Below, in pieces: positions 5,968-39,437 of a stretch of 64,000 nucleotides of DNA. Origin of the DNA: Woeseiaceae bacterium (GTDB lineage: Bacteria; Pseudomonadota; Gammaproteobacteria; Steroidobacterales; Woeseiaceae). The position numbers were made by a program, and so were the translations under genes. Under the pieces are notes generated by a model. The model did not search any database. It was not told the DNA's origin and worked only from the letters and a program-made list of their open reading frames with translations. The DNA is taken from NCBI GenBank assembly GCA_021773075.1, contig JAJFKT010000026.1, positions 184,356-248,355 on the forward strand. Reading direction: 5' to 3'. Every line of letters starts with the position of its first letter. Within the stretch, counting starts at the first letter, position 1.

Positions 5968-6095
5968 TCGAGGCTAAGTCGCGCGGCTTTTTCAAGCGGG
6001 TCATGTCAAAATAACGGTCTGAATGCAGTTACATTGCGGAGCGCGCTGTCAATTTGAACGCGGCGACGACGTACAGACGAGAACTACGGCAAAGA

Positions 6096-16903: not shown

Positions 16904-17028
16904 ATCAGCTCAGGGACGAGCAAAAAGGAAGATTGGGCGCGGCCGGCGAAGAGCGACGCCAGGGAAGTGCCCGCCCAAATTTTCCATTGATAACAAAAAC
17001 AAGAACACGAATAGCAAGGAGCGAACGA

Positions 17029-23486: not shown

Positions 23487-26153
23487 TCATAAATACTGGG
23501 TTTCGGTAGCATCCAGAACAACACGAATTCGTTGCGCCAGCTGTGCGGAGGAATAGGGCTTCGGTAATAACGGAATCTTTTGCGCGCTTTCAATTTCTCT
23601 ATCGCTTTCTGGCTCCATCCCGGTAGTAAGCAATACCTTCATGTCCGGCCAGGTATTCATCGCAATATGCGCAAGCTCTCGACCATTGGTCTCACCGGGC
23701 ATGACAATGTCGGCAAACAGAAGGTCTATCTGCTGGTTCTGTTGCAGAATATCCATCGCCGCGGCTGCATCTTCGGCATAAAGAGTTTCATATCCGAGAC
23801 GATTCAGAGTACGGCAAGCGAACTGGCGTACCCTCTTATTGTCTTCCACAACGAGTATGATTTCCTCGCCCGTTGGGAGATCCTCATCTACGACTTCAAT
23901 TTCAAAATCTTCCGTTGTAGCCACACTTGGAAACGATAATTTGATGCAGGTGCCTTTGTCCGGGCCACTATCGATGTGAAGAATACCGCCGCACTGTTGA
24001 ACAAAATCACTGACCATCGTTAATCCAAGTCCGGTACCTGTCTCAACGGTCTTGGTTGTAAAGAATGGCTCAATGGCCCGGCGTCTGGTTTCGTCGTCCA
24101 TTCCGACGCCATCGTCTGTCACAGTCAGTACAATAAAATCGCCGGAACCTAGATCACCATCCCCTTCTGTTTTATTCACCATCTCCTGCAGGGTCGAGAT
24201 TATTATGTTCCCCCCATCTGGCATGGCGTCACGAGCGTTGGTGACCATATTGAGTACCGCGCTTTCCAGACGATTCTTATCAACAAGGATATTGTCGATG
24301 TCATTATCCAGTTCCATTCTTATACTGATCTCCGGAACCGATCGCTGTATGAGTCTCTCCATAGCTACAAGAATGTTGTTGATGTTCATAGAATGAACAT
24401 CAAGTTCCTGACGGCGAGAATAGGCCAGTAATCGCTTGATTAGGTCGGCCCCGTCCTGGGCTGCGGACAGCGCATCATCAAGCAGATCGTTATGATCCTG
24501 GTCTTCATAAACCACATCCAGCTTAAGAAACCGCAGGTTGCCTCGAATGACCGTCAAAAGATTATTGAAATCGTGAGAAATGCCGTCTGTCATGCGGCCA
24601 ATTGCCTCAAGTTTCATGGCCTGGGTCAGCATACTCTCCTTCTTGCGTGCATCCGTAATGTCTTCATTGATCGAGATGTAGCGGGCGATTTGACCTTCCT
24701 GATCTCGGACGGGGCAGATCGTGGAAGACAGCCAGAACGGGTCGCCGTTCTTTGTCCTGTTTTGAAATACCCCTCGCCAAATACCGCCTTTTGAAACAGT
24801 TCCCCAAAGTTCCTTGTAGTTTTCCTTCGAGGTCTGGCCGGAGCTCAAAAAACGGGGGTTCTCACCGATTACCTCATCCTCACGATAACCGGTGATATCG
24901 TAAAAACGGGGGTTAACGTATTCAATGTTTCCTGCAGCATTGGTAATCATTATCGATACCGGGCTTTGTTCAACGGCACTGGAGAGCTGTTGCAGCTCGG
25001 CGTTCATTTTTTCCTCACCGGACAGGTCACGCATGATGCCGGTAAATGAAACGTTCTGCCCTTCTTGCACCTTACTGACAGTGAGGTAAATCGGAACGAA
25101 ATCACCATCCTTACGCCGCGCCTGTACTCTTCGGCCGGTGCCAATGATCGTGGCAATATCTGTTCGCAAATATTCTCTTATATAGTCATCATGCGTTTCA
25201 GCGTCTGGCAAAGACATAAGCATTGATACGTTTTGGCCCAACACCTGATCGGCCGCATAAGCAAAAATTGACTCTGCGGCCAGATTGAATGTCTGGATGA
25301 TTCCCGCTTCATCTATTGTGACAATACCTTCACCCGCGTTATTCAAGATTGATTCCAGGCGTAATTCGCGATCCAGTATTTCTTCTTGTTTGCCAATCAA
25401 ACTCCGGTGCATTACCTCAAGGTCTTCCGTCAGACTCTTGAGTTCGGAAATGGTAGTGTTGACGCGGAATTCGATGGAATGATCGCCAGCGGCAATGCTT
25501 GTAGCCAAACCTCTCAGAGATGAAACAGGCCGGGTAAGAAACCGGCCAAAGAAAATCGCCAGCAATATGCTGAATACGATATAGCAACTCGCTATGAATG
25601 AACCATATTGGTACGCAGTATTAATTTGATCCTGCACTGCTAATTCGTCATAGCCTAATCTCAAAGTACCCAGCGATCTGCCATCCACATCACTGAACAA
25701 TTGCACCGCGATAAAATATATCTGGTCTGCATGCTGACCGAAATCAAAGTCTTCCCTAAAAACTATCGGTTCTTTAGTGCCGTTCGTTTCGGTGCCAATC
25801 GTCGTATCATTGTTGTTAATAAGCTCCGCGAAGATCACGTCACCGCTAAATTGTGTCTCGTAAAAAAATGAGGCCTGTTTCTGTGCGTCCTGATTCTCGG
25901 CCGCAGGCTTAAGTATTTCGGAATACAGCAGAGTATCGTTGCGTACCTGATCGATAAACTGGGATTCAAAACTGCGTTCGACGATAAGCAGGATACCGAA
26001 GAACAGCAGGGGAGTAAGCGGGATATGGATAATGAATACCCCAAGCATCATGCGGCCGGTAATGCTATGCCAGAACCGTTTTAGTTGTTCGAATCTGTCC
26101 ACAATATACCCAGCGATTTTAGTCCGGATTGACGCCCGAGTTGTTCGGACCAC
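23487..26153 (-). CDS. hybrid sensor histidine kinase / response regulator (periplasmic sensor, HAMP, 2 x PAS, HisKA, HATPase, REC)
   Basis: H-box region GRMTDGISHDFNNLLTVIRGN. N-box and G-boxes LNMVTNARDAMPDGG...DDGVGMD...GTGLGLTMV. C-terminal receiver ILVVEDNKRVRQF...DLLFADIVMPGETNG...LPKPY. The ORF start overlaps the upstream gene by 73 nt; the ATG at 26051 (MMLGVFIIH..., first TM) is an alternative start. Confidence 0.9.
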   Translation of the reverse strand: MVRTTRASIRTKIAGYIVDRFEQLKRFWHSITGRMMLGVFIIHIPLTPLLFFGILLIVERSFESQFIDQVRNDTLLYSEILKPAAENQDAQKQASFFYETQFSGDVIFAELINNNDTTIGTETNGTKEPIVFREDFDFGQHADQIYFIAVQLFSDVDGRSLGTLRLGYDELAVQDQINTAYQYGSFIASCYIVFSILLAIFFGRFLTRPVSSLRGLATSIAAGDHSIEFRVNTTISELKSLTEDLEVMHRSLIGKQEEILDRELRLESILNNAGEGIVTIDEAGIIQTFNLAAESIFAYAADQVLGQNVSMLMSLPDAETHDDYIREYLRTDIATIIGTGRRVQARRKDGDFVPIYLTVSKVQEGQNVSFTGIMRDLSGEEKMNAELQQLSSAVEQSPVSIMITNAAGNIEYVNPRFYDITGYREDEVIGENPRFLSSGQTSKENYKELWGTVSKGGIWRGVFQNRTKNGDPFWLSSTICPVRDQEGQIARYISINEDITDARKKESMLTQAMKLEAIGRMTDGISHDFNNLLTVIRGNLRFLKLDVVYEDQDHNDLLDDALSAAQDGADLIKRLLAYSRRQELDVHSMNINNILVAMERLIQRSVPEISIRMELDNDIDNILVDKNRLESAVLNMVTNARDAMPDGGNIIISTLQEMVNKTEGDGDLGSGDFIVLTVTDDGVGMDDETRRRAIEPFFTTKTVETGTGLGLTMVSDFVQQCGGILHIDSGPDKGTCIKLSFPSVATTEDFEIEVVDEDLPTGEEIILVVEDNKRVRQFACRTLNRLGYETLYAEDAAAAMDILQQNQQIDLLFADIVMPGETNGRELAHIAMNTWPDMKVLLTTGMEPESDREIESAQKIPLLPKPYSSAQLAQRIRVVLDATETQYL

Positions 26154-26563
26154 ATATAGGAAACAGATCCCGGGTTATCGAGCAATGCCTTAACCAGCGC
26201 ATCAATGTTTTCATATTCAGGTGGCCGCTGGTCCCCAAGCCGGAAAACACGTGAAAGTAATTGACGTTCATATTCACGTTTGGACATGAAAACAATCTGT
26301 TGCAGAAATACGTCTGTTGCGAATCGATCACTCGTATTCAGTAACGGCCTAAGTCGTACCTGAGCTTTAGTCATTGGTACACCCAGGAATAACTTTCGTA
26401 CCTCTGCATGGGCAAGTGGTTCTATCGTTAAATTGTTGCTACAGACCAGCAGCAAGCTGCGTTGCGTCGTCTCTGCGCTGCTGTTTGTGCAAACCAAACA
26501 CAGACACATCAACAAGACTTTGAGTTTCGCCGCTTTCCTCTGCATCAGAACATTGCATCCCAC
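26081..26563 (-). CDS. hypothetical exported protein, periplasmic-binding-protein-like (short)
   Basis: Signal peptide KLKVLLMCLCLVCTNSSAE. LLLVCSNNLTIEPLAHAEVRKLFLGVPMTKAQVRLRPLLN resembles the start of PstS-like type-2 binding folds. Co-oriented with the downstream kinase gene and abutting it. Confidence 0.5.
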   Translation of the reverse strand: MGCNVLMQRKAAKLKVLLMCLCLVCTNSSAETTQRSLLLVCSNNLTIEPLAHAEVRKLFLGVPMTKAQVRLRPLLNTSDRFATDVFLQQIVFMSKREYERQLLSRVFRLGDQRPPEYENIDALVKALLDNPGSVSYMWSEQLGRQSGLKSLGILWTDSNN

Positions 26564-27612
26564 TGCAGCATGATTTGGCCAAAATTGTCTCCTTGCGTAC
26601 GATTTCCGGAAATTTCGAGTTTAAAGGCATGTCGACCAAACGCATTCAAACGAACCCCACCAAGAAGCCTGTCAGTGATGTGACGCGGAAATAGCGCTAG
26701 ATAGGCGTCATCCTCTTCGCCAAAGGTCCATTCACCGCGGCCGAAAATTGTCCATCGATCGTCCAGGTTGTATTCCGTTTGAAGATAGCCGCTAAAAAAA
26801 TTATCTGTTAGCGTCCCCGCCAACTGTTGCAGGCGATTATCGACGTAGAATGTTGAACCTACCAATCGCCACGGGTGGGATTCCCAGTTCCCATACGCTC
26901 CTGCGTTAATTTGGCGAATTTTTTCAATTTCCTGGTTGGTGGCAGGGATTTCAGTGTAATTGACAAACAGGCCGTATCGCGTCGGACTGTATATTACCGG
27001 TTCAAGATAAAGGTTCAGCGCGAGGCTGAGGTCCTGCGAACCCGATGCCGGCTCCAAAACATCCAGCGGTTCCAGTTTGTCGGCCATTTCAGGTCCAGTG
27101 GCCACTGCCAGCGCATAACCCAACCCCTTCTTGTCGTATTCCTTGATGCCTTCAACGAGTAGTCCCGTTAAATGCATAGGCAGGATTCCGTCGTCGTCTT
27201 CGAAGTCAACAATTGATGGCCGACTGATACTGGTTTCCAAATAGGAGCCATGATGAAACTGAGTATTCCAGTAACCTACAGGGTTATGAAACCGTCCGAA
27301 CCAGACCTTGCCATCGCCAATCGTCCAACCCAATTGAATTCGCTCAATATCCTGTTCATCTTTACTGAGTAGCAATTCACCGAGAAAAAGTAGTTTTCCG
27401 TACTCGGCCGTGGCAAATACACCTACACCATAGTTGTAATCATCATCATCGAGTAACGAGTCAGTTGCCAGATTGGTACGATAAACCGTGCCTATGTGAG
27501 GGAATAGCAGGTAATCGAAAGTAGATTCACTGTGACTGGGCGGCGAATAAATCGCTATTGCAATAACAATCAGGACATAGATCAATCCGCCTCTATTATC
27601 GTTACAGTTCAC
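26545..27612 (-). CDS. putative outer-membrane beta-barrel protein
   Basis: N-terminal signal or anchor LIYVLIVIAIAIYSPPSHSE. Alternating hydrophobic pattern, Gly/aromatic-rich, C-terminal ...IMLQWDAMF (terminal Phe). No named family recognised. Confidence 0.5.
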   Translation of the reverse strand: MNCNDNRGGLIYVLIVIAIAIYSPPSHSESTFDYLLFPHIGTVYRTNLATDSLLDDDDYNYGVGVFATAEYGKLLFLGELLLSKDEQDIERIQLGWTIGDGKVWFGRFHNPVGYWNTQFHHGSYLETSISRPSIVDFEDDDGILPMHLTGLLVEGIKEYDKKGLGYALAVATGPEMADKLEPLDVLEPASGSQDLSLALNLYLEPVIYSPTRYGLFVNYTEIPATNQEIEKIRQINAGAYGNWESHPWRLVGSTFYVDNRLQQLAGTLTDNFFSGYLQTEYNLDDRWTIFGRGEWTFGEEDDAYLALFPRHITDRLLGGVRLNAFGRHAFKLEISGNRTQGDNFGQIMLQWDAMF

Positions 27613-27790
27613 CTAGCTATGCTCCCTCGATTAAGCGTCGTTATGTGCTGACCTGCCTCATCCGTGGATGTGACGGGCTAGCGAATGTGGACTAATTATA
27701 CTATGTTGATCGGGAGACAGCGTTTCAGTAGATTTACCTAGTCTTGGCCCAGGGTTTCGTTCGACCCGATCACACCTTAAGAATTAAAGA

Positions 27791-28519
27791 ATGACCGAAT
27801 CCGCGAAAATACTAATTGTTGATGATGATGTTCGAATATGCCGAACTCTGAGGTTGTACCTGAAGCGAGAAGGCTATCAGGTCAGTATCGCAACCGATGG
27901 CGAGGAAATGTGGAAGTGTTTCGAGAATGACCTGCCCGATATGATATTGCTCGATATCATGTTGCCCGGCGACGATGGCATAACTCTGGCCCGCGAGCTG
28001 CGAAAAATTTCTGACGTTGGCATCATCATGCTGACTGGAAAAGATGACCCTGTTGATCAGATTATCGGCTTGGAAATCGGTGCCGATGATTACGTGACCA
28101 AGCCGTTTGATGAACGGCAGTTACTCGCCAGGATTCGGAGTCTGCTGCGTCGGCGCGCGATTCCTGTATCGAACACGACGGTTGAAACCGAAGACCAAAA
28201 TAAGAAGATTATTTTTGACGGTTGGGAAATGGATTTATTCACTCATGAACTGGTTTCCCCGGCAGGTCACAGGACGGAACTGACTTCCCATGAATTCAGA
28301 CTCCTTGAGATATTCGTACGAAATCCAGGGGGGGTCTTAAGCCGCGATCAAATTATGCAGAAACTGTACGAACGTGACTGGTCCTTGAATGATAGAAGCG
28401 TAGACGTGCTCATCGGAAAACTGCGCAAGAAAATCGAGGAAGACTCCTCACGACCAAAATTGATTCTGACCATCCGTAATTTTGGCTATAAGTTCGCTGG
28501 TCGAACTTCGAAAAAATGA
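27791..28519 (+). CDS. OmpR/PhoB-family response regulator (receiver plus winged-helix DNA-binding domain)
   Basis: Canonical receiver ILIVDDDVRICRTL...DMILLDIMLPGDDG...IIMLTGKDD...DDYVTKPF. C-terminal trans_reg_C region LTSHEFRLLEIFVRNPGGVLSRDQIM...RSVDVLIGKLRKKIE...ILTIRNFGYKF. Confidence 0.95.
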   Translation: MTESAKILIVDDDVRICRTLRLYLKREGYQVSIATDGEEMWKCFENDLPDMILLDIMLPGDDGITLARELRKISDVGIIMLTGKDDPVDQIIGLEIGADDYVTKPFDERQLLARIRSLLRRRAIPVSNTTVETEDQNKKIIFDGWEMDLFTHELVSPAGHRTELTSHEFRLLEIFVRNPGGVLSRDQIMQKLYERDWSLNDRSVDVLIGKLRKKIEEDSSRPKLILTIRNFGYKFAGRTSKK

Positions 28520-28593
28520 TCGTATTGGATGGGTCCGGTGCCCAGCGCTGTGCGGCTTGAGTGCAGCGCAGTCGTACTAATATCTGCACGAAT

Positions 28594-28670
28594 TTACATG
28601 TAGTTACAATAAATAATTAATCCTTACGAAATCTTGTTTCTCGGGTTACATAGACTCAGTAAGATTACAT
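28594..28670 (+). promoter_or_regulatory. array of TTACAT-like direct repeats upstream of the trihaem cytochrome genes
   Basis: TTACAT 28594, TTACAA 28604, TTACGA 28624, TTACAT 28646, TTACAT 28665 (spacings 10, 20, 22, 19 nt). They lie in the AT-rich 215-bp gap between the OmpR-type regulator gene and the first cytochrome gene. Confidence 0.45.
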
Positions 28671-28734
28671 CTGGGAATGTATTCCAGAAACGAGACATCC
28701 GGCGAGAAACTCAGAACGTAGTCACAGGTGATAA

Positions 28735-29097
28735 ATGAACAGAATGCGAAACGCGAACACTTCAAAAAAACTCGCAGTACTGGTTTTTGTGTTCTTGATT
28801 GCATATTCCACGTCGTATTCAGAATACGGCGATGTGGTATTGGATCGATATAAAGACACTATGGCAGAAGTCGGCCTGGCACCGGTGGTGTTCCCCCACT
28901 GGACGCATCGAATTCAATTTAAGTGCAAGGCTTGCCATGAAGGTATCTTCCCCATGAAAAAGGGGGCGAGTGACATCACTATGTCAGCAATTATCGACGG
29001 CGAGTTTTGTGGCAATTGCCATAACGGAAAAATCGCCTGGGACCCACTTTATTGCGATCGATGTCATTCGCTGACAGAAACCGAAGATAAGCAGTAG
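28735..29097 (+). CDS. trihaem c7-type cytochrome domain protein (paralog 1, minimal)
   Basis: Signal peptide, then FPHWTHRIQFKCKACHEGIFPMKKGASDITMSAIIDGEFCGNCHNGKIAWDPLYCDRCH. This gives three CXXCH motifs in the spacing I associate with the c7-type trihaem domain (TIGR04257 from memory). Confidence 0.85.
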   Translation: MNRMRNANTSKKLAVLVFVFLIAYSTSYSEYGDVVLDRYKDTMAEVGLAPVVFPHWTHRIQFKCKACHEGIFPMKKGASDITMSAIIDGEFCGNCHNGKIAWDPLYCDRCHSLTETEDKQ

Positions 29098-29100
29098 CCC

Positions 29101-29700
29101 ATGTATATCAGGAATTCTCCAAATTTTGGCAGAATGGTGGTCCGGTTTTTCGTTTGTGCGGTCCTTGTGGGCTACGGCAGTCATCAACTTGTGCTGGCAC
29201 AGGAGCCAACAGCGCAGCCGTCAAAACCGGCAGCGGATGACGTGGTTGATCCTGTAGACACAGATGAGTTCGTAGGAGAAATGTACAAGATTGGACTCGG
29301 CTGGCATCCCACCGATCTTGAAGAGTTTCCCACGGACAAGTTCGGTCTGGTTGACTGGGTGGCAACATTGGAAAAGGGACTGATCCAACCAAGAGGCAGC
29401 ATTGCTGCAAACGCTGTGGAGGGAGTTCCTTTCGACATGAATGTACTCATGCCATCGAAAACCGGCATGATTGCAGGCGCACACTTCCCACATAAAACGC
29501 ATACCACCTGGATGGGGTGTGACAGCTGTCATATCAAAATATTTATGCCGCTTGCCGGCTCCAACGATCTAACGATGTCCACGATTGTTGAGGGAAAAGC
29601 ATGTGGCGTCTGTCATGGGAAAGTGGCTTTCCCACTCAATGACTGCGCCCGATGTCACGTGCCGCCGCCGCAGCCCGGTGATAGCGAAGCTGCCAAATAA
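29101..29700 (+). CDS. trihaem c7-type cytochrome domain protein (paralog 2, with N-terminal extension)
   Basis: HFPHKTHTTWMGCDSCHIKIFMPLAGSNDLTMSTIVEGKACGVCHGKVAFPLNDCARCH (three CXXCH). Signal peptide present. An alternative ATG lies at 29134. Confidence 0.85.
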   Translation: MYIRNSPNFGRMVVRFFVCAVLVGYGSHQLVLAQEPTAQPSKPAADDVVDPVDTDEFVGEMYKIGLGWHPTDLEEFPTDKFGLVDWVATLEKGLIQPRGSIAANAVEGVPFDMNVLMPSKTGMIAGAHFPHKTHTTWMGCDSCHIKIFMPLAGSNDLTMSTIVEGKACGVCHGKVAFPLNDCARCHVPPPQPGDSEAAK

Positions 29701-29734
29701 TGGTCAATTACATGTCTTTTTCTAGTCTCTTATC

Positions 29735-30310
29735 ATGCGCACTGCATCGACTTCCCTTCGCGTAGGTTTGGCTATGCTGATCTTCGTTTGTGGTGTCGCT
29801 GCAAACGAAAACATGCCGGCTGCGCTGGCTGAGGCAGATGATGAAAACTCGTCGCCAACGATAGATGCCGAAGCTACCTTCCTGGAGTCGTTGCATTATT
29901 CCCACGAAGAATTCGTGCGTATCTATGCATCTCTTCCAAGAGATGAAGACAACAAGGTTGATTGGGAGCGGGCAACCAGCGAAGGACTTATCAATCCCCT
30001 CGCTTCCATCGATGTAAACAGTGGCGAAGAATTCGTAATGGACCTTAAGGTTGTAATCAAATTCGACGACATGCTGATCAAGGATGTTGTTTTTTCCCAT
30101 GCCGTTCATACGTACTGGCTTAATTGCAGCTCATGTCACCCAAAGCTCTTCAAGCCGGAGATTGCCGCGAATCGTATGACGATGAAAGAGATACGCGCAG
30201 GAAAATATTGTGGTCATTGCCATGGGATGGTTGCATTCCCGACAGATGTGGTAGACGCCCCGAATTTCCGTGCTAATTGTCTAAGGTGCCATCGCGCTCA
30301 AAGAGGATAA
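29735..30310 (+). CDS. trihaem c7-type cytochrome domain protein (paralog 3, with N-terminal extension)
   Basis: FSHAVHTYWLNCSSCHPKLFKPEIAANRMTMKEIRAGKYCGHCHGMVAFPTDVVDAPNFRANCLRCH (three CXXCH). Signal peptide MRTASTSLRVGLAMLIFVCGVAA. Confidence 0.85.
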   Translation: MRTASTSLRVGLAMLIFVCGVAANENMPAALAEADDENSSPTIDAEATFLESLHYSHEEFVRIYASLPRDEDNKVDWERATSEGLINPLASIDVNSGEEFVMDLKVVIKFDDMLIKDVVFSHAVHTYWLNCSSCHPKLFKPEIAANRMTMKEIRAGKYCGHCHGMVAFPTDVVDAPNFRANCLRCHRAQRG

Positions 30311-30316
30311 TCCGAA

Positions 30317-30940
30317 ATGCGATACTACTTAATACTTCTTCTCCTAACCTCGATCTGGACGTTAACTCCGGACTCCATTCTTCTAGCCGAGGATGACGAT
30401 CCAGTGGATACCAAAATCGTCATAGAAAGAGCCAAAAACCTCAAAACCATGCTTGATCACCTGCTTGTTGATTCAAACCACAGCAGTATCCAGAAGGTCA
30501 TCAATGAAGGGGGCGAATCGAGCGAGCCACTCATTGCAGAGGCGCTCAGACTAAAATCGAGTGGTGAGCGATTGCTCACAGAAAAAAAATATTTGGAGGC
30601 CGCGATCGCGCTCCAGTCCGCGCTCGATCACGTTTTTCAGGCTATCAGGTCGGAGCACGACGAGAATGAGCCAGCGGATGCGCTGGAGTTCAGACTGGCA
30701 GAAAGTGTCGAGATAAACGACACGTTTATCTCGGCTGCGCTACGAGTCGTGAACGGCGAGCCGAGCAAGGAAGCGTCTGGTTTGCTGGAAATGGCCAAGG
30801 ATGTTCGAAGTAAAGCGGACATGCAGATCGCCAACGGTGATGTGGTAGCGGCGCTTGATAATCTGAAACAATCAACTGAAATGGCACAGCAAGCCATCAT
30901 GTCGGTCAGAAATGGCAAGGTCATTGAAAGACGCCAATAA
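30317..30940 (+). CDS. hypothetical exported all-helical protein
   Basis: Signal peptide MRYYLILLLLTSIWTLTPDSILLA, then a charged helical sequence with no Cys or haem motifs. It starts 7 nt after the preceding cytochrome gene. Confidence 0.5.
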   Translation: MRYYLILLLLTSIWTLTPDSILLAEDDDPVDTKIVIERAKNLKTMLDHLLVDSNHSSIQKVINEGGESSEPLIAEALRLKSSGERLLTEKKYLEAAIALQSALDHVFQAIRSEHDENEPADALEFRLAESVEINDTFISAALRVVNGEPSKEASGLLEMAKDVRSKADMQIANGDVVAALDNLKQSTEMAQQAIMSVRNGKVIERRQ

Positions 30941-30993
30941 ATAGCTCGAGATTTTGCTAGCGCACGATCCATTGTAGAGGGAGCACAACGATC

Positions 30994-31734
30994 ATGACAC
31001 TTCGAATCAAATACCTATTGATATTATGCGTGTGTTTATCCGCCGGCCTCTTAATTACGAACACAATAGGCGCAGGCCACGCTGCGCAGACAGATAGCGC
31101 GGTGGGAATACAACAGGACGTGCCGAGCACTATTGATGGGAAGGTATCGAAATCTATTAATGTTCCGGGATATACCTATGTTGAGGTTGATACTGGTGAT
31201 GACAAAATCTGGGCCGCTGTACCCAGCACCTCTGTAACTATTGGCGAGCAGGTGTCGTTTTCAATCGGGATACCGATGCAGAACTTCTACAGCAAGACCC
31301 TGCAACGCAATTTTCCAGTCATTTATTTTGTGGACCATTTTATCACTGACGACGGGGCCACAAGCATGAGTGCGGCCGCCGCGGCGGCACATGGCAGCAT
31401 CAGCCAGGAGCCGGTTGCGGAATTATCCGCAGATATCAGCAAGGTGGAAGGCGGCAATTCGATAGCCGAGGTGCATGCGCAAAAAGACGAACTTAACGGG
31501 GAAACGATACGTGTGCGGGGACAGGTAACCAAGTTCACCGCCGGCGTCCTGGGCAAGAACTGGGTTCATATCAGGGACAGAAGTACCACCAATGATCTGA
31601 CCGTTACCACCGATGCTACAGTTGCAGCCAGCGATGTTGTAATTTTCGAAGGAAAACTCGCACTGGATAAGGACTTTGGTTATGGCTATATTTATTCAGT
31701 CATTCTGGAGGATGCAAGTGTAACGAAGGAATAG
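30994..31734 (+). CDS. hypothetical exported protein with OB-fold-like C-terminal region
   Basis: Signal peptide. GYTYVEVDTGDDKIWAAVPSTSVTIGEQVSF, and later ETIRVRGQVTKFTAGVLGKNWVHIRD. I recall this pattern from proteins annotated as OB-fold in metal-reducing bacteria (from memory, unverified). Confidence 0.45.
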   Translation: MTLRIKYLLILCVCLSAGLLITNTIGAGHAAQTDSAVGIQQDVPSTIDGKVSKSINVPGYTYVEVDTGDDKIWAAVPSTSVTIGEQVSFSIGIPMQNFYSKTLQRNFPVIYFVDHFITDDGATSMSAAAAAAHGSISQEPVAELSADISKVEGGNSIAEVHAQKDELNGETIRVRGQVTKFTAGVLGKNWVHIRDRSTTNDLTVTTDATVAASDVVIFEGKLALDKDFGYGYIYSVILEDASVTKE

Positions 31735-31739
31735 TTGAT

Positions 31740-32402
31740 CTAATCAGGAGCGTGCTCTGCCAACCATTCCTTTGCCAATTCCTCTGCTTCCGCAATTTGC
31801 TCTGAATTCATTACTTGCTCAAGCACAGATATGAGTCGTTTGGCAGCCGCGTCGTTATTCGTTGCTGCGATGTTGAACCACTTGTGTGCGTGCACATTAT
31901 CTTCCGCCGCACCCTCTCCGCGAAAATGCATCACGCCAAGCTGACTTTGCGCATCCGCATGACCTTGTTCTGCTGCTTCTAAAAACAGATCATACGCTTG
32001 CTGATAGTCTTGAGTGAGGTCGCTTCCTGAGAGATATCTTTTGCCAATCGCGAACTGTGCCATTGCAAGACCCTGCTCTGCGGCTTTCAACTGCCACGAT
32101 ACACCCAGTTCAACGTTTCGCGTGATGCCATTCCCGACGACGTACATCCTGCCCAGATCAAACTGGGCAATTGCGAGACCTTGCTCCGCCGCTTTGGCAT
32201 ACCAAAGCACTGCGTTCTTATCGTCCCTGGCCTTGCCCTTACCCGTGCGTTCCTTATTGCCATAAAAGCGTCCCAGATTGTACTGGGCGCGGGCATCGCC
32301 AGACTTTGCGGCTGATCTAAGCTCAGAAAAGTCGTTCGCAGTGGCCGGAGAATTTGAACACAGAATAATGAACAGAAATATTGATATCGGGATCCGCAGC
32401 AT
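31740..32402 (-). CDS. Sel1-like (SLR/TPR) repeat protein, exported
   Basis: ATG 32402 gives the signal MLRIPISIFLFIILCSNSPATA. Repeated SLR units: AQYNLGRFY...AVLWYAKAAEQGLAIAQFDLGRMY...GVSWQLKAAEQGLAMAQFAIGKRY...AYDLFLEAAEQGHADAQSQLGVMH... Confidence 0.85.
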   Translation of the reverse strand: MLRIPISIFLFIILCSNSPATANDFSELRSAAKSGDARAQYNLGRFYGNKERTGKGKARDDKNAVLWYAKAAEQGLAIAQFDLGRMYVVGNGITRNVELGVSWQLKAAEQGLAMAQFAIGKRYLSGSDLTQDYQQAYDLFLEAAEQGHADAQSQLGVMHFRGEGAAEDNVHAHKWFNIAATNNDAAAKRLISVLEQVMNSEQIAEAEELAKEWLAEHAPD

Positions 32403-32501
32403 AGCCGTTTGCAATTTCTCGCTCTGATTGGTTCTGGGATAATTATCTTAGAACGTTCTGGACGACGATGTCCAACGATACTCCGCGGCTTTCCGCCTCG
32501 T

Positions 32502-32559
32502 TTACATACGTTTACATTTCATTACAAACAAATATCGGCCGCTCATACGGAAATTACAT
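32502..32559 (+). promoter_or_regulatory. second array of TTACAT-like direct repeats, upstream of the tetrahaem cytochrome gene
   Basis: TTACAT 32502, TTACAT 32512, TTACAA 32522 (exact 10-nt phasing) and TTACAT 32554. Same hexamer family as at 28594-28670. Confidence 0.45.
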
Positions 32560-32636
32560 CCGCCCCATATTATTGCTGTCAATGGAGAGGGAAATTCATC
32601 CAGCTCAGCTTTGAAAACAAACGAAGGGGACATGTA

Positions 32637-33332
32637 ATGAAGACTTTAATCTCAGGCCAAGGGAATCGCATGCTAACGACCCTGTTGTCGGGGTTATTGA
32701 TGGGAATGGGAATCCTGTTCTCAACATCCGCGTTGGCCCAGGACAATACGACGATCGTCGGCTCTCCCCACGATTTTCGAACTCAAGGGTGGGTTAACAA
32801 TGGTAACAACGAAATTTGCGTGGTTTGTCATACACCGCATAACGCAATTTCCCCTCAAGACGGACCGTTGTGGAATCGTTCTTTGACAACCTCGACTTTC
32901 ACGTTGTACACGGCCAATTCTGCAACTCCTGGTAGCGATATTCAGGGCACAGGCTTCAATCAACCGTCGGGTGTATCAAGGCTATGCTTATCCTGCCACG
33001 ACGGGACCATTGCGATCGACGCTTTTGGTGGCTTGACTGGAACGGAAACGATGGATGACATTAACGTCGCCGCAAATCTCGGTGACGTGGTTGGCGGCGT
33101 CGGTGATTTGAGCAACGATCATCCGGTGGCCTTCACTTTTCCGACTACCGATCCTGAAATCGTTCCTAATGTAAACGGCCTGGTCGCGGGTGTGATGCCG
33201 CTATTTGGCGTAGGTCAAGATCAGATGGAGTGCGCTTCCTGCCATGATGTGCATGCTACAAATACATTTGACCAGCTACTCAGGGTTGACAATGACGGTA
33301 GCGCACTCTGCCTGACCTGCCACACAAAATAG
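32637..33332 (+). CDS. tetrahaem c-type cytochrome (stand-alone copy of the N-terminal module of the dodecahaem proteins)
   Basis: ATG 32637 gives the signal MKTLISGQGNRMLTTLLSGLLMGMGILFSTSALA. Motifs CVVCHTPH...PLWNR, CLSCHDGTIA, DHPVAF, CASCHDVH, CLTCH (4 CXXCH). The upstream part of ORF 32409 has no coding character. Confidence 0.85.
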   Translation: MKTLISGQGNRMLTTLLSGLLMGMGILFSTSALAQDNTTIVGSPHDFRTQGWVNNGNNEICVVCHTPHNAISPQDGPLWNRSLTTSTFTLYTANSATPGSDIQGTGFNQPSGVSRLCLSCHDGTIAIDAFGGLTGTETMDDINVAANLGDVVGGVGDLSNDHPVAFTFPTTDPEIVPNVNGLVAGVMPLFGVGQDQMECASCHDVHATNTFDQLLRVDNDGSALCLTCHTK

Positions 33333-33386
33333 CGTGTAAGGTAGTCACACCGCTGTTGGCTCCGACAGGAACCAGGGAAAATCAAC

Positions 33387-33420
33387 ACACCCCCTTCCGG
33401 TTGGTTGGGGGTGTATTTTT
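33387..33420 (+). terminator. rho-independent terminator after the tetrahaem gene
   Basis: ACACCCCC (33387-33394) pairs with GGGGGTGT (33407-33414). An inner CC/GG pairing is possible, and ATTTTT follows. Confidence 0.7.
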
Positions 33421-33492
33421 GTGAAACAATATCTTCATGATCAGGAAGAGCTTGTAAGGCGACATCATAAGATTTTGAAATGAGGTAAGAAG

Positions 33493-34626
33493 ATGCGACG
33501 AGTGCGAAGCAGAAACCTAAAAAATCATTTCCTGGTCGCGGTTTTTCTGTCCGTCTGTCTGGTTCCGGCGTACTCACAAGATCGGATGGACAGCGAAGAT
33601 GGCACAAGCACACTTTTCTATCCAGCGTTGCCGGAAGCTCCACGTATTCAGTACCTGACCAGCTTCTCGGTAGCTGGCGATGTAAAAGAGAAAAAGAAAA
33701 AGAGAAGTGGCTGGTTAAGCGATTTTGTCCTCGGCGAGCAGAACCCCGAGGACGATGAGGGACCGCAAAAACCCTATGGTGTGTCGCTCAACAATGGCCA
33801 GGTCCACGTCGTGGATACTCGGGGAGGCGGTTATGCGATCTTCGATGTGCCCGGTAAAGACTATCGGTTCACCCTCGGGTCAGGGTCTGCTGTTATGTCG
33901 AAACCCATCAACATAGAAATTGACGATGCGGGAACGAAGTATGTCACCGATACCGAGAGAGGTCAGATTCTTGCTTTTGACAGCAACGATAAGTTTCTGA
34001 GGGCCTACGGCAAACGCGGGGAATTCCGGCCGACGGATATTCTGGTTGACGAAGGTCGTTTGTACGTGGTCGATATTCAGGGGCACCGGATCATGGTGCT
34101 CGACAAAGATACTGGCGTCGAACTCAGTTCCTTCGGTGGGCCGGGCGCAGAAGAACATAATTTCTTTCAACCGACCAACATCGCCCTCGGGCCGAACAAG
34201 CATCTATATATTAGTGATACGGGCAATTTCCGTGTGCAAAAATTTACGCGGGACGGTGAGTTTGTGCAAAGTTTTGGAGCAGGCGTTGGCACTGCACCGG
34301 GTGACTTCGCACGCCCCAAAGGTATAGCTGTGGATCGTATGGGCCGGCTTTACGTCGTAGACGCCGCGTTCGAGACTGTTCAAATCTTCAGCAGCCAGGG
34401 TGAGCTGCTATTGTATTTTGGCGAGCCGGCGTCGACGCATCGAGGGGGGCTGGACCTGCCGGCAGATATCGATATTGACTATGACAGCGTCCCCTTTTTC
34501 CAGCAGTACGCGGATCCGGGTTTCAATCTCGAATATATCATTGTCGTTGCCAATCAGTTTGGCAGCAGCAGTGTCAATGTTTTTGGCTTCGGGCGCTATG
34601 AGTCGATGAGATATGAAGACGAGTAA
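33493..34626 (+). CDS. NHL-repeat six-bladed beta-propeller protein 1 (exported)
   Basis: Signal MRRVRSRNLKNHFLVAVFLSVCLVPAYS. Repeated NHL units such as LYVVDIQGHRIMVLDKDTGVELSSFG, FFQPTNIALGPNKHLYISDTGNFRVQKFTRDGEFVQSFG and FARPKGIAVDRMGRLYVVDAAFETVQIFSSQGELLLYFG. Confidence 0.85.
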   Translation: MRRVRSRNLKNHFLVAVFLSVCLVPAYSQDRMDSEDGTSTLFYPALPEAPRIQYLTSFSVAGDVKEKKKKRSGWLSDFVLGEQNPEDDEGPQKPYGVSLNNGQVHVVDTRGGGYAIFDVPGKDYRFTLGSGSAVMSKPINIEIDDAGTKYVTDTERGQILAFDSNDKFLRAYGKRGEFRPTDILVDEGRLYVVDIQGHRIMVLDKDTGVELSSFGGPGAEEHNFFQPTNIALGPNKHLYISDTGNFRVQKFTRDGEFVQSFGAGVGTAPGDFARPKGIAVDRMGRLYVVDAAFETVQIFSSQGELLLYFGEPASTHRGGLDLPADIDIDYDSVPFFQQYADPGFNLEYIIVVANQFGSSSVNVFGFGRYESMRYEDE

Positions 34627-34687
34627 TCGCACCCGCGGCGCATAAATTCTCGATAGAGGTCGGCAAACGGATCTCTGAGATTTACTG

Positions 34688-36697
34688 ATGCGTGAAATCG
34701 TTCTAACTTGCGTTGCACTGGTGTCGATCCTGTTGCCTGACTTCGCGGCCGCCGAGGACGAACTGGCTATTTTTAGGCTAACGAATGTACAGGCCTATAT
34801 AGAATTGCTATATCGAAAGAACGTGTTTAATAATCGAGCGACAGGGATTGAGACTGCTATTGACGATTACAGACCGCAAATCGAAGTCGGCACGTCCACC
34901 AATAGTTACATCTTTCATCCAAAACTGTTGCAGATAAGTTTGGCCGGGAGTTTGCTGTCCGATCGACAGGATATTAGCCGTCAGCAGTTATCAGTAGCGA
35001 CTAATGGGACAACAGAGTCGATCAGCCGTCAAAAACAAGTCTTACTGAACATCAACACAACGTTGCGGCTCTTGAAGGACAAACACTTTCCAACGACTTT
35101 TTCTTATCTGCGCGAAAATCCGGTTGTGCGAACTGGTCTGGAAGGTAGCTTTACACAGACAACAGAAAGATACGGCGTTGACTTTCAATTGCGAGACGTA
35201 TTACCCGTAAGCCTTTCAATAAACGCGTTCACCGATTCGTTCTTTGGGGAGTCCCTTGACCGGATAGTGGACTTTACCTCCGATCGTGTCACCGTAAAGT
35301 CGAGGAAAACCTTTTCCTCGGGTGACCGGTTTGCACTGAGTTACGAGGTGTCGAATCGAAATTCGCGAAACGGAGATCCCAGGAGAATGATCCAGGAAAC
35401 CCTGCGTCGATCGCGAAATCTGGCATTGACATCTAACTGGCGCCTGGGCAGCGGCGATCAGTTGCATATTGATCAAACCGCCAGCTTTAATCGGCGCGAC
35501 AACCCGGATGTGACAGACATCAATTTTTCACCCAGATTTCGCTGGCTACATTCCTCCACACTCCAGTCCAGGTATCGTTACAGTTTCAACCAGTCCGAAA
35601 GACCGGAGTCCATGATCAAGAACCGAACGGAAAGGTCAAGCGCTGCACTGCACTATTCGCCGACGCCGACAATGAATGGTTTCGTTCGCGCCAACTTCGA
35701 TCAATCGGAGGAAAAAAGTCGACTTCTGCAGAGCGCTTTTGGGCTGACGTCGAGAGGTAGTTTCAAGAAAACCTCGAAGATCGGGCTACTCAATTTGTCC
35801 CTTGGGCTTGGTTATGAACGCAAGGATAGGGAGTCCCTGGTAACGCAGATTAGTGTCATAGAGGAATCCGTCGAACTAGTCGGAACTCTACCGATTTTCC
35901 TGTCGAGGGACTTCGTCATTATTGGTACCGTGACGGTCCGCAATGAAACAGGCACCCAGATCCTTAGCGAGGGTGTCGATTATCGCCTGGTTGAGATCGG
36001 TTCCCGGACGCAGATAGAACGATTGATCGGCGGCGGTATTCTTGATGGAGAAACCGTGTTAGTCGACTACGATGCGCAAACTGGCGGGACCTTCGAGTAC
36101 TCACAGATAAGCCAGACGGCGAACCTCGACTTCAAATTTGCGAAATATCATAATATTTTCCTACGCTACCGCAATAACAGGCAAATACTGGAATCCGGTT
36201 TCTCAACGCTTCCGTTTAATTCGGTGAGGTCTGTGGAAGTCGGTCTGCGAGAACAAGTGCCTCTGCGCTGGATGGGACTCCAGCTTTATGGAGAGGCAAG
36301 GTATCTTCACCAGGATGAAGACATCAACCCGTATGAGCAGAAAAGTGTCCTTGTTTCCGTACAGGCACCGTTGCCGTATCGGCTGAAGTTGAGTTTATCG
36401 GCATCGCGGAACTTTGTGGATAATCTGAATTCCGTTGAGGACACGGACATGACGGTATTCAATGCCAACTTGAACTGGAACCCAAGAAGAAACCTGACGG
36501 TCAGGGCGGAAGGATATTACGATAAAGATACCGGAGGGACAATATTACGTAGCAGGACCAAGGGGAAACTAAGAGCGCAATGGCGATATCGAAAAATCCT
36601 TGTTGCAATGGACGCGACGTATGAAAAACAGCGGCAAGGAATTATCGAGAGTGATAATTACGAGCTTTGGTTGCGAATCAGAAGAGAGCTATTTTGA
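34688..36697 (+). CDS. large putative outer-membrane beta-barrel protein (no recognised family)
   Basis: 669 aa. Signal peptide ...LLPDFAAA-ED. Long run of short alternating amphipathic segments rich in R/N/S/Y/F. C-terminal ...YELWLRIRRELF (terminal Phe, OMP-type signal). No Cys or haem motifs. Confidence 0.6.
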   Translation: MREIVLTCVALVSILLPDFAAAEDELAIFRLTNVQAYIELLYRKNVFNNRATGIETAIDDYRPQIEVGTSTNSYIFHPKLLQISLAGSLLSDRQDISRQQLSVATNGTTESISRQKQVLLNINTTLRLLKDKHFPTTFSYLRENPVVRTGLEGSFTQTTERYGVDFQLRDVLPVSLSINAFTDSFFGESLDRIVDFTSDRVTVKSRKTFSSGDRFALSYEVSNRNSRNGDPRRMIQETLRRSRNLALTSNWRLGSGDQLHIDQTASFNRRDNPDVTDINFSPRFRWLHSSTLQSRYRYSFNQSERPESMIKNRTERSSAALHYSPTPTMNGFVRANFDQSEEKSRLLQSAFGLTSRGSFKKTSKIGLLNLSLGLGYERKDRESLVTQISVIEESVELVGTLPIFLSRDFVIIGTVTVRNETGTQILSEGVDYRLVEIGSRTQIERLIGGGILDGETVLVDYDAQTGGTFEYSQISQTANLDFKFAKYHNIFLRYRNNRQILESGFSTLPFNSVRSVEVGLREQVPLRWMGLQLYGEARYLHQDEDINPYEQKSVLVSVQAPLPYRLKLSLSASRNFVDNLNSVEDTDMTVFNANLNWNPRRNLTVRAEGYYDKDTGGTILRSRTKGKLRAQWRYRKILVAMDATYEKQRQGIIESDNYELWLRIRRELF

Positions 36698-36726
36698 CTG
36701 TAGCAACGAAAGTTTACCGGTATGCC

Positions 36727-37749
36727 ATGCGAGCAGCTATTTGCTTTGTCGTTGTGCTTGCGGCGTGCGTGCCGGTCGTGCACGGGCCGATCTACGAAAT
36801 GGAGATTGCAGAGCCAGTGTGGCCGGCAGCCCCCTCAAGGCCACGATTGGCTTTTGTAATGTCTTTTTCGGGCACGGAAGAACTCGGAATTAGAAAAAAC
36901 TTCTTGCAACAGTTACGGGCGTTGATCGGCGGGGCGCGTCAAGTCCGGTTGGTTCGGCCGGTGGCAGTTGTCGAAAGCTCCGACAAGCAGTTGTTTGTCG
37001 CTGATCCCGGAATGCGTGGCGTACATCGTTTCGACCTAGAGAGAGGCGGGTACCAGTTGATTCAGGGAGAGAACGGTCAACCGTTGTCATCGCCTGTCGC
37101 GCTTGCCGCCGGGTTGAGTGGTGAGGTCTATGTTACGGATTCACGTTTGGCCGCCGTATATGTTATTGAGCCCGGTAAAACCGTCGCCGAAAAAGTACCT
37201 CTTGAGGCCCTATTGGCGCGGCCGACCGGGCTGGCGCTGGACCCCTCAAGTGGGCGACTCTATCTCGTCGATACGGGCAGTCATGAAGTAAAAATATTCG
37301 CTCGCGACGGAGCTTTGCTGAAGCGATTTGGTCGCCGCGGTACAGGAACAGGTGAATTTAATTTTCCGACTATGATCTGGATGAACAATGCTGGTGAAAT
37401 TCTGGTTTCAGATTCCATGAATTTTCGGACACAGGTATTCGATTCTGCCGGAAACTTCCTGCGCCAATTTGGTGAAGCTGGCGATGGCGCAGGACATCAG
37501 GCACAAGGCAAGGGAATAGCGACAGACAGTAAGGGCCATGTGTATATCGTTGATTCGATGATGCACGCAGTTCAGGTTTTCGATCCGTCGGGCAACTTTC
37601 TATTCAAGTTAGGCTTTCGAGGGGAAGGTCCAGGAGAGTTCTGGTTACCGGCCGGCATCTTTGTCGGCGAGAGGGATACGATTTATGTGGCCGATTCCTA
37701 TAACGGCCGAATTCAGGTGTTCCGGTATATTGGTGGTAACTCGCCATGA
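36727..37749 (+). CDS. NHL-repeat beta-propeller lipoprotein 2
   Basis: ATG 36727 gives MRAAICFVVVLAAC (lipobox). NHL units: FNFPTMIWMNNAGEILVSDSMNFRTQVFDSAGNFLRQFG, GKGIATDSKGHVYIVDSMMHAVQVFDPSGNFLFKLG, FWLPAGIFVGERDTIYVADSYNGRIQVF. Its stop overlaps the next start (ATGA 37746-37749). Confidence 0.85.
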   Translation: MRAAICFVVVLAACVPVVHGPIYEMEIAEPVWPAAPSRPRLAFVMSFSGTEELGIRKNFLQQLRALIGGARQVRLVRPVAVVESSDKQLFVADPGMRGVHRFDLERGGYQLIQGENGQPLSSPVALAAGLSGEVYVTDSRLAAVYVIEPGKTVAEKVPLEALLARPTGLALDPSSGRLYLVDTGSHEVKIFARDGALLKRFGRRGTGTGEFNFPTMIWMNNAGEILVSDSMNFRTQVFDSAGNFLRQFGEAGDGAGHQAQGKGIATDSKGHVYIVDSMMHAVQVFDPSGNFLFKLGFRGEGPGEFWLPAGIFVGERDTIYVADSYNGRIQVFRYIGGNSP

Positions 37750-39437
37750 AATATGTAGGTTCGTCCTGTCTGATCTTGTTGGTGCTTTACTTGGCCGGCG
37801 GTATGTCCATGGCACAGCAAACATTCAATATGGAAGACAGCCGGCATGATCTGGCCATAGTCCTGTCGACCGGCTATGAAGGCGAGGTCAATGATGCTCA
37901 GTGTATCTTCTGTCATCCTCCCCGCAGTCAGACGCTAAAGATTGGATTGTGGAATGAGGCGCCAGCGGAGAATCTCTTTGACTACCCCTACGGCAGGCAG
38001 GATGAAAAAGGGACACCGGGCAAACCGGACGGTTCTTCGCTTGTCTGCCTCGGCTGTCATGACGGAACTATTGCTCTGGGCGACATACTCAGTCGTACTC
38101 AGTCGATCAGCAATAGTCGAGACACAAAACGTACTGACTTGTCCGACGGTCACCCTATCTCATTCTCGTATGATTCAACTCTGGTGGACAAGAATGATGA
38201 ACTTGAAAATCCAAAGACGTTAAGGCAACAGGTGAGGCTTGACACAACAGGCAAGATCCAGTGTACGAGTTGCCATGATCCCCATGACGATACCAATGGA
38301 AATTTCCTGGTAATGGACAACAGTTCAACAGCGCTGTGTGTCACGTGCCATAAAAAGGCCGGTTGGGGTACATCTCTGCACAATATTTCATCAGCGACCT
38401 GGAACCGTAGGGGACAGGATCCATGGCCATTCAATAATTTGAGAGGTTCAGTTGTAGAGCACGGTTGTTCTAATTGCCACACGCCCCACGCGGCAGGGAA
38501 TGGCCAATATCTTCTCAATTTCAATGTCGAAGAAGACAATTGCGCGGCATGTCACAATGGCAATGTGGCGGCTACAGATATCAGTGCAGAATTTAACAAA
38601 ATCTCGCATCACCCCATTGAGCAGACGACCGATATTCATGCAACGGATGAAGCGATCATTGTGAATGCGGAGGATCGTCATGTTGAGTGTGTTGATTGTC
38701 ATGACCCTCATTCCGTGAGTACGGCCGATGCGAACGGTACCACTGTCACCTGGAAAAATGTTCGCGGCGTGGATGTTAATGGTGGAGAAAAAACAGAGGC
38801 TATCGCAGAATTTGAATCGTGTTTTCGCTGTCATGGTGACAGCCCGGGAAAGGCCGCCATGCCAACCCCGCGCCTGCACGACCAGAATAACGTTCGGCTT
38901 CAGTTTGATAATGGTAATCCATCATTTCATCCGGTAGTTGGCCCCGGTAACAACTCAAACGTCCCATCTTTGATAGCACCATTGAGCGAAAACAGTACTA
39001 TCGCCTGCAGTGATTGCCACTCCAGTGATAACGACTCGAGTCTCGGTGGGAACGGGCCTGATGGACCGCATGGGTCGATTTACCGGTCTTTGTTGATTCG
39101 GGCCTATCAAACACAGGACCAGACACCTGAGAGTCCCGGCGCTTATTCCTTGTGTTATATGTGTCACGATCGGAACAGCATTCTTGGTGATGAGAGCTTT
39201 GCGCAGCACAGATTACACATCAGCGATAACAACACCCCTTGTAGTGTCTGCCACGACCCGCACGGGATAAGCTCTGTACAGGGGAATACAGTCAACAACT
39301 CACACTTGATTAATTTCGATACATCTGTCGTTTTCCCAAACAGCGGTAATGACCTTCATTTTGAGGATCGTGGAGATCTCAGCGGAGCCTGCTTTTTGGC
39401 ATGCCACAATCTTGAACATGACGGTCTTTCATATTGA
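37746..39437 (+). CDS. dodecahaem c-type cytochrome A (11 CXXCH + 1 CX3CH)
   Basis: Signal peptide. Haem motifs: CIFCH, CLGCH, CTSCH, CVTCH, CSNCH, CAACH, CVDCH, CFRCH, CSDCH, CYMCH, CSVCH, plus C-terminal CFLACH. Conserved DGHPISF and NPSFHPVVGPG blocks. Confidence 0.9.
   Translation: MKYVGSSCLILLVLYLAGGMSMAQQTFNMEDSRHDLAIVLSTGYEGEVNDAQCIFCHPPRSQTLKIGLWNEAPAENLFDYPYGRQDEKGTPGKPDGSSLVCLGCHDGTIALGDILSRTQSISNSRDTKRTDLSDGHPISFSYDSTLVDKNDELENPKTLRQQVRLDTTGKIQCTSCHDPHDDTNGNFLVMDNSSTALCVTCHKKAGWGTSLHNISSATWNRRGQDPWPFNNLRGSVVEHGCSNCHTPHAAGNGQYLLNFNVEEDNCAACHNGNVAATDISAEFNKISHHPIEQTTDIHATDEAIIVNAEDRHVECVDCHDPHSVSTADANGTTVTWKNVRGVDVNGGEKTEAIAEFESCFRCHGDSPGKAAMPTPRLHDQNNVRLQFDNGNPSFHPVVGPGNNSNVPSLIAPLSENSTIACSDCHSSDNDSSLGGNGPDGPHGSIYRSLLIRAYQTQDQTPESPGAYSLCYMCHDRNSILGDESFAQHRLHISDNNTPCSVCHDPHGISSVQGNTVNNSHLINFDTSVVFPNSGNDLHFEDRGDLSGACFLACHNLEHDGLSY

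Follow-up and report, generated by a model that had tools for sequence, protein, structure and literature searches.

In the Pho regulon, activator-dependent promoters have direct repeats in place of a -35 element, and the spacing between these repeats and the -10 element is short and fixed. The TorS/TorT/TorR system employs a hybrid kinase and a periplasmic accessory component to switch on a c-type cytochrome operon, torCAD, via several direct decamer repeats. Here we describe two arrays of TTACA repeats in a 64,000-nucleotide (nt) stretch of a Woeseiaceae genome (4.09 Mb, 53% GC; G000:C19:184356-248355), referred to below as the window. One array precedes an operon with trihaem cytochrome genes (unit 1) and the other a tetrahaem cytochrome gene (unit 2), and both lie near the gene of an OmpR/PhoB-family response regulator. 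The closest published binding sequences are the OmpR box, with the half-site KWWGTTACAT and the repeat GTTACATTTTGTTACAT (PMC5438342), and the RstA box, TACATNTNGTTACA, with tandem TACA half-sites at 10-nt spacing (PMC4117788). The regulated region contains the same gene set as Uet/OmcE-type clusters of Tenderiales, Gallionella and Desulfuromonadia, which comprise tetrahaem, c7, NHL, large barrel and undeca-/dodecahaem genes (bioRxiv 10.1101/2022.05.06.490989, PMC9900912). Judging from the sequence, we consider it probable that both arrays are multi-site operators of the adjacent regulator (27791-28519).

Array 1 comprises five hexamers of the form TTAC(A/G)(T/A), namely TTACAT at 28594, TTACAA at 28604, TTACGA at 28624, TTACAT at 28646 and TTACAT at 28665, at spacings of 10, 20, 22 and 19 nt. 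Array 2 comprises four, TTACAT at 32502, TTACAT at 32512, TTACAA at 32522 and TTACAT at 32554, which are spaced by 10, 10 and 32 nt within GTTTACATACGTTTACATTTCATTACAAAC. All nine hexamers are on the + strand, which is also the strand of the downstream genes. An earlier reading of the window, made from its letters alone (the sequence-only reading), had placed five hexamers in 28594-28670 and four in 32502-32559, the first three of the latter at exact 10-nt phasing, and had the regulator gene 27791-28519 stop 75 nt before the first hexamer. These positions and spacings hold to the base. The same reading had included all five hexamers in array 1. All five are present, but the fifth is probably no true site, since it is unconserved in relatives and overlaps the predicted -10. 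The elements of both arrays are listed below, together with their conservation in alignments of array 1 regions (A6) and array 2 regions (A5) from five loci each.

28594-28609, + strand: distal dimer site of array 1, TTACATGTAGTTACAA, with half-sites at 0 and +10, predicted at -78/-68; invariant in five loci.
28624-28629, + strand: half-site +30 of array 1 (TTACGA); its TTAC is invariant in A6 and in the anchored alignment.
28646-28651, + strand: promoter-proximal half-site +52 of array 1 (TTACAT), 8 nt before the predicted -10; TTACA invariant in A6.
28660-28665, + strand: predicted -10 of the trihaem operon, TAAGAT (T, A .. A, T invariant in A6); predicted start at about 28672.
28665-28670, + strand: fifth hexamer, TTACAT; GATTGCAT in L001, no TTAC in L014, L016, L018 and L020.
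32502-32527, + strand: distal triple site of array 2, TTACATACGTTTACATTTCATTACAA, with half-sites at 0, +10 and +20, predicted at -78/-68/-58; the longest invariant block of A5.
32544-32549, + strand: CATACG/ATACGG block at the -35 position of unit 2; ATAC.G invariant in A5.
32554-32559, + strand: promoter-proximal half-site +52 of array 2 (TTACAT), 8 nt before the predicted -10; ATACAC or ATACAT in relatives.
32568-32573, + strand: predicted -10 of the tetrahaem gene, TATTAT (T, A ... T invariant in A5), at offset +66 as in array 1; predicted start at about 32580.

Taken singly, the hexamer is not enriched in the window (103 copies found versus 96 expected), and 5526 copies occur genome-wide on both strands. 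Same-strand clusters of at least four hexamers within 80 nt number exactly two in the genome, arrays 1 and 2. AT-rich intergenic DNA elsewhere in the genome therefore does not yield such clusters, and a similar density in such DNA, by which the sequence-only reading had proposed to refute itself, was not found. A Poisson estimate based on the genome-wide hexamer density gave about 0.15 expected clusters of at least four and about 0.002 of at least five. The paired form TTACA-N5-TTACA occurs in seven copies, three of them inside the arrays.

We then scanned the genome with a 10-nt weight matrix. This matrix was built from 39 units of foreign loci only, excluding this genome and its close relative, and describes a unit nnTTACAwnn in which the TTACA core is near-invariant and followed by A/T-rich positions, and in which T never occurs at position 0. 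Two adjacent units scored highest at 32500 (25.4), 32510 (25.0) and 28592 (23.3), and the fourth-best tandem match in the genome reached 18.7. Lower matches that were checked (C24:163225, C19:545680, C4:214052, C7:86536) fall within coding sequence or into the 24 nt that separate pilin-like genes, and TTACAGGTGTTTACA at position 39647 of the window was rejected as a further site on the same grounds. Given the low score of the fourth match and the location of those checked, the predicted regulon in this genome would consist of these two promoters only. No autoregulatory array was found between the sensor operon and the regulator gene (27613-27790), and no boxes were found at the NHL, barrel and dodecahaem genes downstream of unit 2.

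Across related loci, the arrays stand out as phylogenetic footprints. The five array 1 regions share a mean identity of 53%, and 19 of the 30 invariant columns make up four TTAC(A) elements at offsets 0, 10, 30 and 52. In array 2, no invariant stretch is longer than the repeat block TTTACATTTCTTTACATTTCAT.AC. When 17 arrays were anchored on their first TTAC, the direct repeats recurred on one strand with a period of about one helical turn: every array had TTAC at offsets 0 and 10, eight also had it at 20, seven at 30 and six at 52. In 15 of the 17, a TAnnnT hexamer started at +65 to +67 (background 2.1% per position), so that the arrays hold a fixed position relative to the predicted promoters. 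In both units of the window, exactly 8 nt separate the end of the proximal TTACAT from this hexamer. Read as a -10, it would place the starts near 28672 and 32580, leave 5' leaders of some 60 nt, and put the half-sites at about -78, -68, -58 or -48, and -26. A consensus scan for sigma-70 promoters on the + strand of both intergenic regions found none, and no -35 can be recognised in front of either unit, as is typical where a promoter depends on an activator.

The regulator gene is preceded by a divergent sensor operon:

27791-28519, + strand: OmpR/PhoB-family response regulator (Pfam: REC and winged helix), the proposed binder of the arrays.
23487-26153, - strand: hybrid sensor kinase of 888 amino acids (aa) with Pfam HAMP, two PAS, HisKA, HATPase and REC domains, the presumed partner of the regulator.
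26081-26563, - strand: exported protein of 160 aa, co-operonic with the kinase; no Pfam or NCBIfam match; kept beside the kinase in most related loci.
26545-27612, - strand: putative outer-membrane protein of 355 aa, first gene of the sensor operon; no Pfam or NCBIfam match.

The regulator carries a receiver (PF00072, 9e-30) and a Trans_reg_C domain (PF00486, 1e-24), and its phospho-acceptor pocket (D12/D13/D55, T82, K104) is invariant. As the sequence-only reading had stated for the region, it is the only DNA-binding response regulator of the 64-kb window, where the other REC domains are the kinase's own and that of a REC-only protein (363-947). None of the named subfamilies fits. The joint best NCBIfam models were ArcA (224.3 bits versus a cut-off of 334 for NF008378) and TorR (224.2 bits versus 275 for NF008034), and both were rejected, as were orthology to OmpR (220.3 bits, 219.8 in the genome search, versus 331 for NF007005) and to RstA (154.4 bits versus 330 for NF007977). 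The PhoB models were far below threshold as well. Several orthologues are labelled TorR by JGI. For the DNA-binding domain alone, the nearest solved structures are the OmpR and RstA domains.

In metagenomes, relatives of the regulator with 68-91% identity form at least 66 protein clusters, and the next ones are 62% identical. All 13 non-redundant regulator loci (58-91% identity) have 10-nt-phased TTACA arrays before multihaem-cytochrome units, despite differences in gene order and cytochrome type, and the regulator is the only gene common to all 13. The PAS hybrid kinase adjoins it in 12 of them. Four loci (L014, L016, L018 and L020, regulator 72-80% identical) keep both arrays and the full gene order from the kinase to the dodecahaem genes. 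In others, the arrays precede different genes:

L019 (regulator 68% identical): TTTACAAATCTTTACAT; downstream a porin and a cytochrome c.
L021 and L191 (62% and 58%): four to five units, for example CTTACAAAAAATTACAAAAAATTACCTGTCGTTACAT; downstream a flavocytochrome-c sulfide dehydrogenase and a NapC-like cytochrome.
L022 and L107 (58-59%): three to four units; downstream a Uet-like tetrahaem gene, followed by peptidyl-prolyl isomerase, barrel and c7 genes.
L104 and L105 (61% and 59%): four to six units; downstream MtrA/MtrB(PioB)-like genes.
L106 (59%): one dimer; downstream a Sel1-cytochrome c gene.

Because the arrays persist where the cytochrome units differ, the boxes follow the regulator and not its targets, which is the strongest support for our reading. 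L191, which was obtained after the matrix had been built and is absent from its training, fits the matrix. L107 additionally holds the largest array that we saw, nine consecutive 10-nt TTACA units on the - strand (16900-16991). In the MtrAB-type locus L104, the first gene behind the array encodes a stand-alone receiver of 136 aa (5685-6095), which hints at an extra phosphorelay component in that lineage.

Loci without the regulator gave a different picture. Among 78 loci that carry the 355-aa family but not the regulator (1.19 Mb), we found no cluster and one dimer scoring at least 20. The 80 loci that surround unrelated OmpR-family regulators (1.41 Mb) had three clusters and two dimers scoring at least 20, none above 21.0. 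The latter are reference-genome loci of generic OmpR-family proteins (at most 46% identity) from an alignment scan and were not taken as orthologues. Sites and regulator thus co-vary, with arrays in 13 of 13 loci versus almost none in the controls. Within Woeseiaceae, a regulator orthologue was present in only two of 201 genomes (G000 and G194). The pattern TTACA-N5-TTACA-N5-TTAC occurred in these two and in one genome of 35% GC, that is, in 2/2 genomes with the regulator and 1/199 without. In the 35%-GC genome (L188, G020:C72:68774-68797), a membrane-fusion-like gene is preceded by three tandem copies of TTACAAATAC. That genome gave no relative of the regulator at E <= 1e-60, and the repeat is probably unrelated to the regulator boxes. 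Relatives of about 50% identity in other Woeseiaceae genera were rejected as orthologues, since neither cytochromes nor arrays are nearby. The sequence-only reading had proposed that one two-component system controls both units. Each computational check able to contradict this proposal spoke for it. It is supported by the uniqueness of the clusters, the footprint, the 13/13 co-occurrence and the near-empty controls, and from them we infer binding itself.

How does this locus compare with the described systems? That its half-sites resemble OmpR sites had been suggested from the sequence and is borne out, both by the nearest solved domains and by the published OmpR and RstA boxes, which consist of tandem (T)TACA elements at 10-nt spacing. 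With EnvZ/OmpR at ompF (F1-F3) and ompC (C1-C3) it shares the receiver and winged-helix design, a near-identical half-site, and several tandem 10-bp units over 60-80 bp upstream of a weak promoter, the best site being farthest away. It differs in that the regulator is no OmpR orthologue, the kinase is a PAS hybrid kinase and not EnvZ, the targets are multihaem cytochromes and not porins, and the proximal half-site is nearer to the -10 (8 nt). The first dimer of array 1, TACATGTAGTTACA, fits the RstA-box consensus at every specified position. Unlike in the RstA system, however, each promoter has several sites and not one box, the regulon is different, and the regulator scores below the RstA cut-off. 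The Tor system is similar in combining a hybrid kinase and an accessory component with a cytochrome operon and direct decamer repeats, but TTACA is not the tor box, the kinase lacks the Hpt domain of TorS (it reaches 94 and 71 bits with the TorS models, versus cut-offs of 676 and 982), and the 160-aa protein is unlike TorT in size. From PhoB and its pho boxes the locus is set apart by the half-site sequence and by a period of 10 nt instead of 11 bp. Compared with the Uet clusters as described for Tenderiales, the cluster here comes with a dedicated two-component system and the operators of that system. We found no paper that names a regulator for Uet/OmcE-type clusters, and the word 'regulator' occurs 0 times in the Tenderiales paper.

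The genes behind the two arrays are the following:

28735-29097, 29101-29700 and 29735-30310, + strand: three c7-type trihaem cytochrome genes of unit 1 (Pfam Cytochrome_C7).
30317-30940 and 30994-31734, + strand: two genes of unknown function, which complete unit 1 (28735-31734); the whole unit is syntenic in L014, L016, L018 and L020.
32637-33332, + strand: tetrahaem cytochrome gene, unit 2 (Pfam paired-CXXCH domain, four CXXCH).

We propose that the regulator is phosphorylated, most likely by the divergent PAS hybrid kinase (23487-26153), and then dimerises. It would bind head to tail on 10-nt units nnTTACAwnn. A high-affinity distal site about 78 to 58 nt before the predicted start, with two perfect half-sites in unit 1 and three in unit 2, would nucleate the binding of additional protomers at weaker sites, one or two helical turns farther downstream. 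The last half-site (TTACAT) would stand in for the -35, since it ends 8 nt before the conserved TAnnnT -10, and the regulator would recruit sigma-70 RNA polymerase. One signal would thereby switch on the periplasmic trihaem c7 operon of unit 1 together with the monocistronic tetrahaem gene.

We favour activation, with reasonable though not strong confidence, because the layout (the best site distal, weaker sites downstream, the last unit replacing the -35) is like that of OmpR at ompF/ompC and of PhoB at pho boxes, which we take both arrays to match. OmpR-family proteins do repress at some promoters. Here, the promoters might be constitutive, with the proximal half-site in their spacer, and the adjacent regulator bound there might act as a repressor that keeps RNA polymerase out for as long as the signal lasts. 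The proximal TTACAT indeed lies between the -35 and -10 positions, and array 2 has a conserved block at its -35 position. However, the missing -35 elements and the empty + strand promoter scan would be typical of activator dependence, the strongest sites are distal at about -78/-68, the usual place for activator nucleation, and pho boxes, located about 10 nt before the -10, are activating. We therefore regard repression as unlikely. The conserved block itself (32544-32549) may be a poor -35, a contact of another factor, or a degenerate half-site that precedes the proximal one by 9 nt; as (C/T/G)ATACGG, it is unlike TTGACA.

Several observations weigh against the proposed link between the adjacent regulator and the boxes. 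First, the related loci are partly kin and not all independent lineages, so that their counts are not independent trials, and two of them, L019 and L106, lack the +66 geometry. The nine-unit array of L107 lies between a cytochrome c gene and a 742-aa MtrC-like gene, in the opposite orientation to the downstream gene, and no convincing small open reading frame on the array's own strand explains it. Second, Pfam detected no Hpt domain in the 888-aa hybrid kinase. Either its HisKA domain passes the phosphate directly to the regulator and the REC domain of the kinase is a side branch, or the route requires an unlinked Hpt protein. Third, the recognition helix DRSVDVLIGKLRKK is near-identical in the relatives at about 50% identity, around which no arrays lie. 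The helix does not set the subfamily apart from them, and a specificity residue within it was rejected; thus, no such residue supports the link between regulator and boxes. Fourth, the genome encodes seven other OmpR-family regulators, two of which exceed the adjacent one on the OmpR model (285 and 257 versus 220 bits), so the binder is not assignable from this genome alone.

The last two points, together with a motif of the type of the E. coli OmpR and RstA boxes, make binding by another OmpR-like regulator the main rival to our reading. The housekeeping OmpR-like protein (G000:C19:169450-170139) or the one at C37:410580-411266 would occupy the arrays, and the adjacent regulator would be a bystander or act elsewhere. 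But the arrays travel with the subfamily of the adjacent regulator in 13 of 13 loci of varied genomic background, Woeseiaceae genomes without it do not show the pattern, and the genome lacks the additional high-scoring sites, at porin genes for instance, that would be expected of a general OmpR regulon. We consider this rival improbable. That the repeats are no protein sites at all, being chance, AT-rich curved DNA, -35-like TTTACA of stacked promoters or remnants of a repeat element, is close to refuted: TTTACA is one base off the -35 consensus TTGACA and the spacers in L021 and L104 are A-tracts phased at 10 nt that would bend DNA, but the TTACA core is invariant while the spacers vary freely, the conserved -10 has no hexamer at a distance of 16-18 nt, only at 8 nt or at 28 nt and more, such clusters occur nowhere else in the genome and hardly at all in 2.6 Mb of controls, and no other copies point to a mobile repeat.

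Operation of both arrays by the adjacent regulator remains the reading we prefer. Around its predicted targets, the following features were noted:

31740-32414, - strand: Sel1-repeat protein gene (Pfam Sel1), divergent from unit 2.
32445-32474, - strand: promoter-like site of the Sel1 gene, TGGACA-18-TAAGAT; GATGTCC and TA blocks conserved in A5.
33387-33420, + strand: strong intrinsic terminator 3' of the tetrahaem gene, ACACCCCC...GGGGGTGT followed by TTTTT (8-bp GC-rich stem and T-run).

The Sel1 promoter-like site is kept in four relatives and lies 28 nt from array 2. Relative to this promoter, the distal dimer of array 2 is at about -64 to -79 and could co-regulate the Sel1 gene. Downstream of the tetrahaem gene follow NHL propellers, a 669-aa barrel and two dodecahaem cytochromes. 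Because of the terminator, the tetrahaem gene would be either monocistronic or the attenuated leader of these genes, as is usual for highly expressed filament subunits. Boxes stand before two units only. Beyond the terminator, expression of the NHL, barrel and dodecahaem genes must come from read-through or from a separate promoter.

At the far end of the sensor operon, the 355-aa protein belongs to an unnamed outer-membrane family that is widespread in Gammaproteobacteria, with the invariant motifs HNP(I/V)GYW and HHGxY. At least 106 relatives occur in reference genomes (Methylomonas, Acidiferrobacteraceae, Burkholderiales and others), mostly without the regulator. We rejected it as an anchor of the system, because only two of the 80 loci of this wide family have the regulator, and it is therefore not specific to the system. 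The REC-only protein of the window (194 aa, - strand) is encoded directly downstream of a polyphosphate-kinase-like gene (944-3040).

The module from the kinase to the dodecahaem genes (23487-42213) is mobile or patchily inherited, since L014, L016, L018 and L020 keep the gene order while the flanks outside differ. Among 400 sampled Gammaproteobacteria, no regulator orthologue was found at E <= 1e-78, a floor because only six candidates per genome were scored. The same order with different flanks, the presence in only 2 of 201 Woeseiaceae genomes and this absence from 399 other sampled Gammaproteobacteria suggest that the module is a horizontally moving island.

The mechanism of tandem OmpR-type boxes is textbook knowledge, and the value of the finding therefore lies in annotation and in an experimental handle and not in a new principle. 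What is new is this regulator, its targets, and the use of the same regulator-box pair on several kinds of extracellular electron-transfer conduit in uncultured Proteobacteria. How uncultured bacteria time the building of their extracellular electron-transfer machinery is largely unknown, and our results offer a concrete, testable circuit with a defined regulator, a 10-nt unit, two mapped operators and predicted promoters. Metagenomes can be probed with the boxes for further regulon members, and a laboratory host given the regulator and its promoters can act as a reporter in the search for the inducing signal. More tentatively, and somewhat short of an even chance in our judgement, the regulator subfamily, its boxes and the PAS hybrid kinase may act, in uncultured Proteobacteria of sediment and groundwater, as a dedicated and horizontally mobile master switch of extracellular electron-transfer conduits. 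Such a switch may be wired to whichever conduit the host has, a Uet/OmcE-type nanowire, an MtrAB/PioAB-type porin-cytochrome or a sulfide-dehydrogenase/NapC module, and may often read an outside cue via the co-encoded outer-membrane and small periplasmic proteins. If this is true, new electron-transfer genes could be predicted in metagenomes from the boxes, and the sensor would be a pointer to the signal behind the onset of mineral or electrode respiration.

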